32,000 bases of DNA from Promethearchaeota archaeon (GCA_016933055.1 JAFGBS010000001.1:150001-182000); one strand, 5' to 3'. Positions 16,695 through 27,130 are shown, counted from the stretch's first letter. Program-made: numbers and translations. The notes: generated by a model not told the origin, from the sequence alone.

Positions 16695-17990
16695 ATGGTA
16701 GAACTTCTAGCACCTGCAAAAAATATAAAATCCATCAAAGCCGGACTAGAATATGCGGATTCCTTCTATTTCGGATTCGAAAAATATAATATGCGCATAC
16801 AAGCGGACAATTTCACACTACAAGATCTCCCAAAAGTAGTTACATTGTTACATGATTCTAATAAAAAGGCATATTTAACTACAAACATCCTTTTCTATGA
16901 AGAAGAATTAGAGGATTTACGTAAATTATTAAAATTTGCTCAATCCATCGAGTTTGACGCTGCAATTTTGCATGATGTTGCAGCAGTATCGTATGCAAAA
17001 GAAATTGGGATTCCTTTTCATATAAGCACACAAGCTAATGTTTCAAATTCCGTTTCAGCTAAATTTTATGAATCATTGGGAGCAGAACGGATTATCCTTG
17101 CTCGCGAGTGTTCTCTTTCTCATATACGTAAAATCAGTAAAGAACTCCATAAAGCTGAAATCGAGGTTTTTGTCCATGGAGCTATGTGTACATCCATTTC
17201 TGGTAGGTGTTATTTTTCACAAGATGTATGTGGGGGAGATGATGCTTTTTCAGCTAACAGAGGTCGATGTGTGCAACCTTGCCGACGCGAATGGACGGTA
17301 ATTGATAACCAAAATAATGAATACTTATATGATGGAGTCAGATTCATGAATTCTCGTGATCTCTGTCTGATTGAATTTATTCCAGAATTAATCCAAGCGG
17401 GGGTGAAAGTCTTTAAAATTGAGGGTAGAATGCGTTCTCCCCATTATGTATATTGGGTCACCAAGATATATAGAGAAGCTCTGAATGAATTCGAAAAGGG
17501 TAATTTTACCATCGACAATAAGAAAAAAGTGGGTATGTGGATTCATGAACTAAAAAAAGTGTATAATAGAGGATTTACTCAAGGATTTTTGTTTCATCGT
17601 ATGCAAGCAAGTGATCATCAACCGAAATCTCCCACAAATTTATCTCATTGGAGATTAATCAAACTCGGCACGATTACATCTTATAACAATCCCATAGGAG
17701 TTGTTCAATTAACCAATGGTTTTGTCAAAGAAGGATTGCGAATCCTTATTAAGGGAGATACTCAATCGGATACCTTTTTTCATCAGAATATCCAACAATT
17801 GTACCTAAATGGAGTAAGAGTAAAAATGACCAAAAAAGCAAGCGAAACCCATCCAATTTCTGTCTCAATGAAATTTAACGAACCTGTTAATCCCACATCT
17901 GATTCTTTATACTTGTTCACAAATGCTACCTATAAGCACCGAAAATCGAGTTCCAAACATAAAAAGAAAAAAGAATATTATCAACTTTAA
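16695..17990 (+). CDS. Peptidase U32 family protein (Fe-S; RlhA/TrhP-type RNA hydroxylase family)
   Basis: ELLAPA, RIILARE, EVFVHGAMCTSISGRCYFS, NRGRCVQPCR and FKIEGRMR. ATG 16695 is preferred over TTG 16686. Confidence 0.9.
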   Translation: MVELLAPAKNIKSIKAGLEYADSFYFGFEKYNMRIQADNFTLQDLPKVVTLLHDSNKKAYLTTNILFYEEELEDLRKLLKFAQSIEFDAAILHDVAAVSYAKEIGIPFHISTQANVSNSVSAKFYESLGAERIILARECSLSHIRKISKELHKAEIEVFVHGAMCTSISGRCYFSQDVCGGDDAFSANRGRCVQPCRREWTVIDNQNNEYLYDGVRFMNSRDLCLIEFIPELIQAGVKVFKIEGRMRSPHYVYWVTKIYREALNEFEKGNFTIDNKKKVGMWIHELKKVYNRGFTQGFLFHRMQASDHQPKSPTNLSHWRLIKLGTITSYNNPIGVVQLTNGFVKEGLRILIKGDTQSDTFFHQNIQQLYLNGVRVKMTKKASETHPISVSMKFNEPVNPTSDSLYLFTNATYKHRKSSSKHKKKKEYYQL

Positions 17991-24835: not shown

Positions 24836-27130
24836 GTGTCACCCTTGCAGACCCGCCTATTTGTAGAGCCTATTGAGACTATCTCTAAGAGATGTCAGAT
24901 CTCTGAGGGCACTGCTAAAGAAATCAATATAAATACTGGAGAACTGGTTATTCTAACTGACCCAAATACAAATAAACAAATAACTTGCCCTGCGGATGTA
25001 TCCAGTGAAATTTTAGATTTTTCTATAAAAGTAGCGAGTGATATTTTAACTCAAATTGATTTTACAGGGATTGAGCTTATAGTTGCGAAAGCATCGGGTG
25101 GTATTCAACCATCAAGTGCACCGAAACCTACTTCAGGATTCACCACAATGCCTCAACGGCCGAGTACCACTCAGACTCTTCCTCAATCCGGATATACATC
25201 TACTCCACCCAAGCCACAAGTTAGTACCCCACCCCCCAAACCAATTTCACAGCCCACACCGCAACGACCTCCGCAATCAAGTCCAGAACCCGAAATTCAA
25301 ATGCCTCCTCCCCCCAAATTACCCCCACAACCCCCTCAAACTCAAACACCTCCTAAAATCACCCCTCAGCCGGGATTTTCACAAGTACCAACTCCAAAAG
25401 TATCTCCTCAACCACAACATGGATTTAGTCAAGTTCCTCCCCCACCTCAGTCTTCAATTCCATCTGGTATGACACAACCCCCACCAGGGATGCAGCACGC
25501 TTTTGATATGGATCAAGGCATGGGTATGGGAGATGGGATGGGTATGGCTCCTCCAGATCCTTATCCTGATAGAATTGATGTGAATAGTTTATCCCAACAG
25601 ATTCCTGGATCATTGGTATTAAATGTCAAAAAAACAATAGGGTGCAATGGTCGTGTCAAGTTAAATCCCCAGACCATCACTTCTCTACGGCTAGCACACG
25701 GCATGTTAGTGGCATGGGAAGATCCATTAACCCGTTCTCAAGGATCTGCTCGCATCACTGCAGATAACATTCCTCAATTTGAAGTTCACATGGATCTGGA
25801 TACTACCGAGGATACAAATATCCAAGCAGAGCAAATCGTGTTGTATAGTACAGAACCTCCTATTGAATTTCAAGATGAGATAACTTTAGAAGTGGTATCT
25901 CAGCCAGGATTAGATGGATTCATTATGGTAAATCCCCGAAACGCAGCCACTCTACAAGTAACTGAAGGAGAAGTTCTCTCTTTTGAAGACAATTTAACCG
26001 GTGCAATTGGTGCAGCGAAATTCAAGATTAAGGAAGATTTGCCCAATGATCAAGTGGTCATAGATGCAGAACTGATTGAAGCGTCGGGAGTAGGTTCCAT
26101 GGAGGTGGAACTTAAGAAGAATTTACGCCAGATTATTGCACTCCAAAGCGTGGAATTGGGTATCAGTCCCATAACTGGTGAGAATGTGTGGGAGATCATC
26201 TCCACTGCGCGCCAGAATATTAACAACATCAAAAGATGGCTTTCCAATTATATTATTTTCAAGGGTATAAAATTACGATGGGAGGCTGCAAATGTTGCTT
26301 GCGAGTTTTTAAGTACAATTCCAGATCTTATCGGAGATGTGTTCGCTACTATTACCGAGAATACTACCATCACATTAAGACCCACTGGGTTAGTGACTTT
26401 TAACGCGATACTCATAATAGATATTTCTCGAAGTATGATGGCGCGTGATGTAGAGGTTAAAAACATTGGTCCGGCTCTTGAAGGAATCAAAGCAGCTATG
26501 AGTGCGAAGGAGATTCAAGAATTCCTTGCTAAATTCAAACCAGGAGTACTTGTGCCACGGAGATATAGTGCAGCATTTGCAGCAATTTTGTTCCTTTCCG
26601 AAAAAGTCGGAAGAGGATTCGGTGAAAAAGTATCTATAATTCGATTTGCAGATGAAGCACAAGTTGTCCCATTTGAAGGAGGAATGCCATACATGGATAG
26701 TTCCTCGGGTGCCAAAGATGTTCTTGAAAATGCAGCTAAACTAATAGTAGAGCAAATAGGGAATGCTTATGGGCAAGCTACAAATCTTGGACTAGCTATG
26801 AGGAAAGCTCAAGAAATCCTGAAAACTTTTGAAGCGTTGGAAGTGAATGAAGAAGAAAAACAACCCACAATGATTGTATTACTCACTGATGGTATCCCGA
26901 CTGATGGAAATAAGTTCTTCGATTCTGTTAAAGACTTCAGTAAAAATCCAAATGTAGTGATGTATATTATCGGGTTAGGAAATCCGGATGATGTTGCAAT
27001 GAAACGTGCTGCACAGTTATGTGGTGGAGAATACTTCAAACCCGAGGATTCAGGTGAATTGCTTATTTGGTATTCTAAACGTGCACGTGATTTACAAGTT
27101 AAAATGAAAGCACATTCTCCATCCGAATAA
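24836..27130 (+). CDS. Cdc48-N-like double-psi-barrel (x3) / proline-rich / VWA domain protein
   Basis: aa 7-85, 260-338 and 349-428 resemble DPBB repeats; aa 433-515 resemble the CDC48_2 subdomain; aa 88-245 are Pro/Gln-rich; VWA with MIDAS DISRS, TNLGLAM and VLLTDG. GTG start. Confidence 0.8.
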   Translation: MSPLQTRLFVEPIETISKRCQISEGTAKEININTGELVILTDPNTNKQITCPADVSSEILDFSIKVASDILTQIDFTGIELIVAKASGGIQPSSAPKPTSGFTTMPQRPSTTQTLPQSGYTSTPPKPQVSTPPPKPISQPTPQRPPQSSPEPEIQMPPPPKLPPQPPQTQTPPKITPQPGFSQVPTPKVSPQPQHGFSQVPPPPQSSIPSGMTQPPPGMQHAFDMDQGMGMGDGMGMAPPDPYPDRIDVNSLSQQIPGSLVLNVKKTIGCNGRVKLNPQTITSLRLAHGMLVAWEDPLTRSQGSARITADNIPQFEVHMDLDTTEDTNIQAEQIVLYSTEPPIEFQDEITLEVVSQPGLDGFIMVNPRNAATLQVTEGEVLSFEDNLTGAIGAAKFKIKEDLPNDQVVIDAELIEASGVGSMEVELKKNLRQIIALQSVELGISPITGENVWEIISTARQNINNIKRWLSNYIIFKGIKLRWEAANVACEFLSTIPDLIGDVFATITENTTITLRPTGLVTFNAILIIDISRSMMARDVEVKNIGPALEGIKAAMSAKEIQEFLAKFKPGVLVPRRYSAAFAAILFLSEKVGRGFGEKVSIIRFADEAQVVPFEGGMPYMDSSSGAKDVLENAAKLIVEQIGNAYGQATNLGLAMRKAQEILKTFEALEVNEEEKQPTMIVLLTDGIPTDGNKFFDSVKDFSKNPNVVMYIIGLGNPDDVAMKRAAQLCGGEYFKPEDSGELLIWYSKRARDLQVKMKAHSPSE

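Follow-up and report, generated by a model that had tools for sequence, protein, structure and literature searches.

A conserved Asgard gene module of a carboxylate-amine ligase, an amidohydrolase and a Cdc48N-like/VWA protein underlies an island of eukaryote-like genes in a Lokiarchaeial genome

Gene content of the island

We analysed a stretch of 32,000 nucleotides (nt) from a Promethearchaeota (Lokiarchaeia) metagenome-assembled genome (MAG; GCA_016933055.1, JAFGBS010000001.1:150001-182000), hereafter referred to as the window. The nearest genome is MAG AMARA_1. Positions 17987-28315 of the window accommodate seven genes in four strand blocks (Table 1). Six of them, coding for an amidohydrolase, a ligase, a scaffold protein, a gelsolin-domain protein, a roadblock protein and a protein combining Cdc48/NSF-N-like barrels with a VWA domain (hereafter the VWA protein), constitute an island of eukaryote-like interaction modules, for which an original prediction had proposed an undescribed system joining actin control, protein tagging and AAA-adaptor function. 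As the data presented below show, the island represents the form that an Asgard-wide gene module takes in one lineage. The ancient core of the module comprises four parts: the ligase, the amidohydrolase, a domain with N-formylglutamate amidohydrolase (FGase) fold, and the VWA protein with its invariant MIDAS, a metal-ion-dependent adhesion site.

Upstream, the island is bordered by genes for a U32 peptidase, a DUF401 protein and a VTT-domain protein, with arginine-pathway and other metabolic genes farther to the left, and downstream by membrane open reading frames (ORFs) and a radical-SAM gene. Gene order, strands and ordinary flanks are as first described, and the domains assigned to the six genes were likewise confirmed, with the exception of the gelsolin protein, whose second half is not recognizable as gelsolin.

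Table 1. Genes of the island, the adjoining methyltransferase gene and the domains of the encoded proteins (nt positions refer to the window; aa, amino acids)
Feature	Position	Strand	Description
Amidohydrolase	17987-19525	-	PF04909 26.8 bits (cut-off 26.4); HxH motif; PF04909-like TIM barrel (~370 aa) and C-terminal extension (~140 aa); metal-dependent; core of module
GCS2/YbdK-like ligase	19547-21268	-	PF04107 22 bits (cut-off 21); ATP-dependent carboxylate-amine ligase of the GCS2/YbdK superfamily; basic disordered N-terminus of ~95 aa; core of module
Scaffold, 600 aa	21319-23121	-	AlphaFold2 (AF2) model, predicted local distance difference test (pLDDT) 87
Scaffold, part 1	aa 15-115 and hairpin 383-408		Ig/MG-like beta-sandwich; cobra venom factor (3frp_G) Z 9.6, VIA-align
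Scaffold, part 2	aa 150-387		TPR-like solenoid; gamma-SNAP Z 10.6, VIA-align
Scaffold, part 3	aa 420-600		alpha/beta domain with FGase fold; 2odf Z 9.8 and 2q7s Z 9.5, VIA-align
Gelsolin-domain protein	23277-24248	+	PDB 7whg match, E 2e-5; gelsolin/cofilin domain (aa ~1-105), K/P/E-rich linker, conserved C-terminal domain (aa ~205-323, ~120 aa)
Roadblock/LC7 protein	24277-24669	-	PF03259 36.1 bits (cut-off 23)
VWA protein (Cdc48N-like/Pro-rich/VWA), 764 aa	24836-27130	+	PF00092 VWA 31 bits (cut-off 23.8)
VWA protein, small N-terminal beta-barrel	24836-25120	+	aa 1-95; weak double-psi beta-barrel (DPBB)-type Pfam match to Molydop_binding; kept in f1 and f3 orthologues
VWA protein, Pro/Gln-rich low-complexity linker	25121-25537	+	30% Pro, four PPP runs
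VWA protein, Cdc48/NSF-N-like two-barrel module and small beta domain	25538-26392	+	AF2 model, Foldseek
VWA protein, VWA domain	26393-27130	+	Complete MIDAS (DxSxS...T...D); Pfam VWA; core of module
TIGR01177/Trm11-Trm14-like methyltransferase	27134-28315	+	NCBIfam and Pfam; starts 3 nt past the VWA gene

Conservation of the gene order

Gene order within Promethearchaeales was compared across 41 genomes representing four families (f1-f4), and two conserved three-gene cassettes became apparent, namely scaffold-ligase-hydrolase and gelsolin-roadblock-VWA. The former cassette is collinear in f1, f2 and f3, with the scaffold gene invariably upstream of the ligase gene. As to the latter, the gelsolin gene, the best roadblock orthologue and the VWA gene are located on one contig and in this order in 29/41 genomes, and they are co-stranded in most genomes. 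Families f1 and f3 yielded zero counter-examples, the leftover cases in these families representing contig breaks or an incomplete genome. Inversion of the roadblock gene is confined to the genus of the window and its two nearest genera; in all other f1 and f3 genomes examined the gene is co-directional. The two cassettes adjoin in four f1 genera, either divergently as in the window or in tandem as in Promethearchaeum syntrophicum MK-D1, which has the six genes on a single strand at NZ_CP042905.2 1315293-1325474, and in a closed genome of 6.04 Mb. In f3, they are separated by 8-105 kb or reside on different contigs. Flanking genes beyond the cassettes are not kept past the genus, save for Nnr upstream of the gelsolin gene. 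The arrangement of the island is thus far beyond chance, as it recurs in dozens of genomes with differing flanks. This outcome supports the undescribed conserved system of the original prediction, which had named scrambled gene order in close relatives as grounds for its rejection: order is kept, not scrambled, and the VWA gene is linked, across the whole of two families of the order, with the roadblock and gelsolin-domain genes.

In genus g4, the ligase, hydrolase and scaffold genes are jointly missing, and the remaining VWA copy is only 25% identical, has a degenerate MIDAS and has lost the Pro-rich linker. Genera g1 and g2 are the only ones in which the methyltransferase gene adjoins the VWA gene; elsewhere it is found on other contigs, and we judge it to be a passenger outside the module.

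The neighbourhoods of the cassettes hold several further genes. A conserved ORF of ~241 aa upstream of the f3 ligase cassette is, by motif, similar to cis-prenyltransferase (undecaprenyl pyrophosphate synthase), and both this ORF and Nnr were considered as module members and judged to be housekeeping neighbours. In MK-D1, as well as in the closed 6.04-Mb genome, the hydrolase gene is followed on the same strand by a gene for a membrane protein of the Frag1/DRAM/Sfk1 family (L002:13022-13723 and L001:13942-14616), which is not so in the window. A Loki-type VWA gene (63-64% identity) is also present on two short JAZGCJ01 contigs binned as Thermodesulfobacteriota (L077, L078), which are probably mis-binned Asgard contigs.

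At the level of the phylum, 301 genomes were sampled. Homologues of the VWA protein, the hydrolase and the ligase have one and the same distribution, being present in ten families and absent from all of the other ~20; bearers of the module include Helarchaeota, Thorarchaeota, Jordarchaeales, Freyarchaeum, Asgardarchaeia and Heimdallarchaeota. The VWA homologues adjoin the hydrolase and/or the ligase gene in at least six Asgard class-level lineages, with varied orders and orientations. In Helarchaeota, a small ORF is followed by the VWA, scaffold-like, ligase and hydrolase genes on a single strand, and a weak longin-like ORF occupies the position of the roadblock gene. In Jordarchaeales, Freyarchaeum and Asgardarchaeia, the hydrolase and VWA genes, transcribed in this order, face an oppositely oriented series of genes for a coiled-coil protein, an FGase-like protein and an Ig-rich ligase. 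In Thorarchaeia, hydrolase and VWA genes are neighbours in the same order in >45 genomes, with the ligase gene 8-11 kb off, and inclusion of Jordarchaeales, Freyarchaeum and families f10 and f30 brings this adjacency to roughly 60 genomes. Finally, genomes labelled Heimdall carry the hydrolase homologue immediately before the ligase gene.

Thorarchaeia additionally encode proteins of ~880 aa in which a hydrolase-like and a VWA-like domain are fused (hhalign E 2e-27 and 1e-29), and in which the HxH and the MIDAS residues are both lost. As judged from its sequence, this fusion is a catalytically degenerate pseudo-enzyme paralogue of the hydrolase-VWA pair. It is encoded divergently from the active pair (loci L029-L036, e.g. 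L032:8065-10728).

Taken together, recurrent adjacency, identical phyletic profiles, joint loss in g4 and the domain fusion contradict coincidence for the core, and chance clustering of the ligase, hydrolase, FGase-fold and VWA components is ruled out. The suspicion, voiced in the original prediction, that the clustering may be coincidental is at variance with cross-genome recurrence for most of the genes. Its proposal that the divergent units form one system holds insofar as they are linked via the VWA protein, by adjacency and by the fusion in Thorarchaeia, and fails for the methyltransferase gene.

More distant links of the roadblock and gelsolin genes were also traced. In Freyarchaeum, a gelsolin-like gene lies beside the module in 3/4 genomes with enough context. 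The roadblock-like/coiled-coil protein of Jordarchaeales and Freyarchaeum and a 146-aa ORF of Helarchaeota gave no signal in comparisons with the roadblock protein of the window, so that any deep roadblock link would be hypothetical. The links of the roadblock and gelsolin genes are real at the level of two families and may in part reflect retained synteny.

One genome assigned to a Heimdall family (f26, 8% contamination) harbours Loki-like ligase and hydrolase genes (E 1e-166 to 1e-208) on a small contig, G226:C60. These copies probably represent contamination rather than gene transfer.

Features of the encoded proteins

The ligase aligns with the YbdK structures PDB 1r8g and 1tt4 in the region of the catalytic core (E 2.5e-5 and 7.6e-5). 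Residues E104, E106, E210, H264, H266, E383, R385 and D388 are invariant in 12 sequences from Loki- to Heimdallarchaeia, and identity amounts to ~60% across the order. It thereby shares with the YbdK/GCS2 ligases the catalytic core with its conserved acidic, His and Arg residues, but differs by its N-terminal tail and, in Jord-, Frey-, Thor- and Heimdallarchaeia, by an Ig-like C-terminal extension of ~650 aa. Scores obtained with the NCBIfam YbdK and GshA models ranged from 17 to 47 bits, all below the cut-offs of 176-427. By these sequence criteria the ligase is a new subfamily of the GCS2/YbdK superfamily that matches no named equivalog. Comparison of the Ig-rich extension of the Jord/Frey ligases with the scaffold of Lokiarchaeia revealed no homology beyond a weak beta-sandwich stretch.

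The amidohydrolase carries the metal site of the amidohydrolase superfamily (HxH ... H ... D). Its D-[AS]-H-x-H motif is retained from Loki- to Thorarchaeia and in Heimdallarchaeia, H190, H260 and D325 are invariant, and the PF04909 score rises to 68 bits in the orthologue from Jordarchaeales. A search of the hydrolase profile against the PDB returned nothing but distant PF04909 enzymes. With their catalytic motifs intact, ligase and hydrolase are both probably active.

In the VWA protein, the MIDAS motif is invariant in 20/20 orthologues from Loki- to Thorarchaeia. The VWA domain alone resembles ordinary MIDAS VWA domains such as those of TFIIH p44, Rpn10, ITIH and ArnB (VIA-align Z 20-23; ArnB, PDB 8s05, Z 19.8 at 26% identity), and the protein terminates ~10 residues past this domain. 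An AF2 model of aa 235-764 (pLDDT 88) consists of a Cdc48/NSF-N-like barrel pair, a small beta domain and the VWA domain. Foldseek, run with this model as a whole, matched it to the N domains of p97, NSF, Pex proteins and SPATA5, and the Pfam family CDC48_N (PF02359) recognizes 4/21 orthologues (best E 6e-4). The Pro content of the linker is 28-43% in f1, f3 and Helarchaeota orthologues, and 24% and 9% in the f4 genomes G022 and G020, respectively. No AAA ATPase is conserved near the module, leaving the AAA-adaptor function of the original prediction unfounded.

The scaffold gave no match in a Pfam search and was assigned by structure (Table 1). An alpha-2-macroglobulin/complement identity suggested by Foldseek was rejected as a domain-mix artefact (template modelling score 0.13, root-mean-square deviation (rmsd) ~30 A). 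The C-terminal, FGase-fold domain is homologous to a separate protein of ~250 aa encoded upstream of the ligase gene in Jordarchaeales and Freyarchaeum (hhalign E 7e-5), both sharing the motif GKSFYYxIP. In two scanned loci of Thorarchaeia, the VWA gene stands tail-to-tail with a gene for a HEAT-repeat protein (L034:6613-7743, L033:3593-5086), and ORFs of similar size occupy its position in the remaining six; this protein may be the counterpart of the solenoid scaffold of Lokiarchaeia. In three f1 genera, a conserved ORF of ~160 aa that has no Pfam match lies directly upstream of the scaffold gene (L002:7060-7548, L001:8023-8529, L049:1105-1584); it is absent from the window.

The gelsolin protein matches the solved Lokiarchaeota gelsolin PDB 7whg with aa 20-84. 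It shares this N-terminal domain and the layout of one G domain plus a further domain with the known Asgard gelsolins ProGel, 1DGelX and 2DGel (Akil et al. 2020, PMC7444086), but its C-terminal domain is not recognizable as gelsolin: neither hhalign against the N-terminal domain nor PDB profile and Pfam searches detected a gelsolin signal in it. Searches of a protein atlas with this C-terminal domain and with the VWA protein were uninformative. A literature search found no mention of a genomic link of gelsolin to the VWA/roadblock/ligase module. The roadblock protein belongs to PF03259 and matches the PDB roadblock proteins 9jue_D and 7f8m_A.

Interpretation and alternatives

It is slightly favoured by the available sequence information that the module operates as a machine for the reversible ligation and hydrolysis of amides, which includes a MIDAS adaptor and in Lokiarchaeia is joined to roadblock and gelsolin proteins. 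That is, a substrate bearing a carboxylate, be it the side chain or C-terminus of a protein or a small molecule resembling glutamate, would be furnished with an amide bond by the ligase, and the amidohydrolase would undo this bond. The scaffold may present the substrate to the ligase. The VWA protein could act as a non-catalytic adaptor, whose MIDAS metal would grip an acidic group and whose Cdc48N-like barrels and Pro-rich linker would hold protein partners. The hydrolase-VWA fusion of Thorarchaeia suggests that adaptor and hydrolase function together as a physical complex. The roadblock and gelsolin-domain proteins of Lokiarchaeia may connect the cycle with a GTPase-type platform, the actin cytoskeleton or both. 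Two of the functions in the original prediction, protein tagging and actin control, are at this stage hypothetical.

A comparable system is pupylation, which relies on the ligase PafA and the deamidase/depupylase Dop together with an ATPase receptor. The module may work alike, as it likewise combines an amide-forming, ATP-dependent ligase of glutamine-synthetase/GCS fold with a reversing enzyme and a binding adaptor. However, its ligase is of the YbdK/GCS2 type and gives no Pup_ligase match in Pfam, its putative eraser is a TIM-barrel amidohydrolase rather than a ligase paralogue, and neither a Pup-like tag gene nor a proteasomal ATPase is seen near the module.

Several observations weigh against the proposed ligation/hydrolysis machine. 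The Pfam scores of ligase and hydrolase barely exceed the cut-offs, so that substrates cannot be inferred from them. In f4 the genes are dispersed, even in a closed genome, and clustering is thus not obligatory. The gelsolin cassette has also retained the housekeeping gene Nnr at its side, so that inertia may account for part of the order-level synteny. The links of gelsolin and roadblock are seen in two families of a single order and, beyond it, in one genus of Freyarchaeum. Lastly, neither a Pup-like small gene nor a common conserved small ORF was seen among the ORFs of at least 80 aa examined at the loci.

The two enzymes could alternatively serve small-molecule metabolism by making and breaking a gamma-glutamyl-type amide or a peptide metabolite, e.g. 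an osmolyte, a cofactor or a storage compound, with the VWA, scaffold, roadblock and gelsolin proteins as assembly or regulatory accessories or mere neighbours. Relatives of the ligase in the GCS2/YbdK superfamily are glutamate-cysteine-type ligases. Enzymes of PF04909 and of the FGase fold act on small carboxylates and N-acyl-glutamates, which also speaks for this possibility, as does the hydrolase-ligase pair, which of all parts of the module is retained most widely, Heimdall-labelled genomes included. However, purely metabolic roles would leave unexplained the strict co-inheritance with the MIDAS/Cdc48N adaptor, the inactive hydrolase-VWA fusion paralogues and the extension of the ligase unit by Ig repeats and TPR, and we therefore regard this scenario as rather unlikely.

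A further possibility emerges from the architecture of the VWA protein. The best multi-domain PDB matches of its model are GATOR1/SEACIT entries and the DEPDC5-only entry 9xzy (Foldseek E 7e-14 to 1e-11), extending over about 420-430 aligned columns at rmsd ~8 A; p97 N-D1 ranks behind these entries (E 3e-10, rmsd ~23 A). DEPDC5 itself has an NSF-N-like N-terminal domain (NTD) and a SABA domain resembling the Sec23 trunk (reviewed in PMC8534245). By its model, the VWA protein resembles DEPDC5/Iml1 (Sea1; PDB 9xzy, 9o5e, 8adl, 7t3b) at the level of fold, with Cdc48/NSF-N-like barrels followed by a VWA/Sec23-trunk-like domain, and the partners of DEPDC5 belong to the roadblock/longin superfamily, as those of the VWA protein may do. 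The module could accordingly be imagined as a GATOR1-like platform in which a DEPDC5/Iml1-type scaffold, together with the roadblock/longin-like partner, regulates a Rag/Arf-like GTPase, and the enzymes provide amino-acid-related sensors or inputs. The roadblock gene adjacent to the VWA gene in Lokiarchaeia, the weak longin-like ORF at the same place in Helarchaeota and the NPRL2-like longins known from Asgard archaea (bioRxiv 10.1101/2020.10.19.343400) would fit this idea.

However, the IML1 hidden Markov model (PF12257) found nothing in the whole genome at E <= 10, and the DEPDC5 likeness is therefore confined to the fold. IML1 is also absent among the Pfam matches of 21 VWA-protein orthologues, and the VWA protein lacks the SHEN, DEP and C-terminal domains of DEPDC5 and has an intact MIDAS. 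Taken alone, its VWA domain is far closer to ordinary MIDAS VWA domains than to SABA. Where DEPDC5 cooperates with Rag GTPases and NPRL2/3, the phylum-wide conserved partners in the module are the ligase and the hydrolase rather than GTPases; Pfam scans of the window and of flanking ORFs at the loci revealed neither a GTPase nor an NPRL-like gene, no genome-wide search having been made. We consider a GATOR1-like platform unlikely. Its evolutionary variant is less probable still: the VWA protein would be an archaeal forerunner of the DEPDC5/Iml1 NTD-SABA unit, the roadblock/longin neighbour would prefigure the GATOR1-Rag-Ragulator platform, and ligase and amidohydrolase would have been the original amino-acid-linked input. 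If true, a pre-eukaryotic nutrient-sensing device would have existed, wired to an actin regulator in Lokiarchaeia.

For the module as a whole, it is very improbable that independent eukaryote-like genes cluster coincidentally with synteny from shared ancestry alone. The four transcription directions in this genome, the conservation of Nnr and the dispersal in f4 would agree with such a scenario, but adjacency of the core in at least six class-level lineages with differing orders and orientations, together with the shared phyletic profiles, the joint loss in g4 and the fusion, speaks against it. For the gelsolin gene alone, coincidence is conceivable, albeit doubtful, and for the methyltransferase gene it is likely.

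The original prediction had further pointed to the VWA, gelsolin and Pro-rich parts as ingredients of Sec23/24. The conserved neighbourhood of the VWA and gelsolin-domain genes and the close match of the VWA domain to ArnB, whose type of archaeal VWA protein has been compared with the Sec23/24 core (PMC12852372), would be in line with separate-gene forerunners of Sec23/24, i.e. a split proto-COPII, but there is no zinc finger, CxxC pair or Cys cluster, the VWA domain forms the C-terminal domain, keeps its MIDAS intact and is not followed by a beta-sandwich-plus-helical module, the gelsolin domain resides on another gene, no Sec23/24 chain is among the 50 Foldseek matches listed and no Sar1-like gene lies nearby, which renders this scenario extremely improbable. 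ArnB (8s05, PMC12852372) nevertheless provides a precedent for an archaeal cytosolic MIDAS VWA protein as a regulatory adaptor; it differs from the VWA protein of the module, whose N-terminal part is Cdc48N-like instead of the beta-sandwich/helical part of ArnB, and which has neither a zinc-finger/FHA partner such as ArnA nor a zinc finger.

Significance

A search of the literature for these genes in combination brought up no account of the module, which is apparently undescribed. Eukaryote-signature genes of Asgard archaea are reported to lie mostly outside conserved neighbourhoods (bioRxiv 10.1101/2020.10.19.343400), and the module would add another conserved neighbourhood of eukaryote-like genes, spanning genomes labelled Loki, Hel, Thor, Jord, Frey, Asgard and Heimdall. 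In it, an adaptor laid out like the front half of DEPDC5 is coupled to two enzymes that are probably active, and it offers a testable route to new archaeal modification or signalling chemistry. Asgard archaea are the closest archaeal relatives of eukaryotes, DEPDC5 is a eukaryotic nutrient-signalling protein, and the module also bears on the origin of the GATOR1 scaffold. MK-D1, with its complete set of six genes, is a cultivable strain.

Elsewhere in the window, positions 1306-5215 hold an arginine/ornithine-type group of genes for a carbamoyltransferase, a putative cyclase, an amino-acid kinase and a class-III aminotransferase. Between this group and the island lie a gene for a CBS-pair protein with an added C-terminal domain (7220-8038) and two ORFs of 314 and 644 aa that have no Pfam match (9858-10802 and 12002-13936, respectively).

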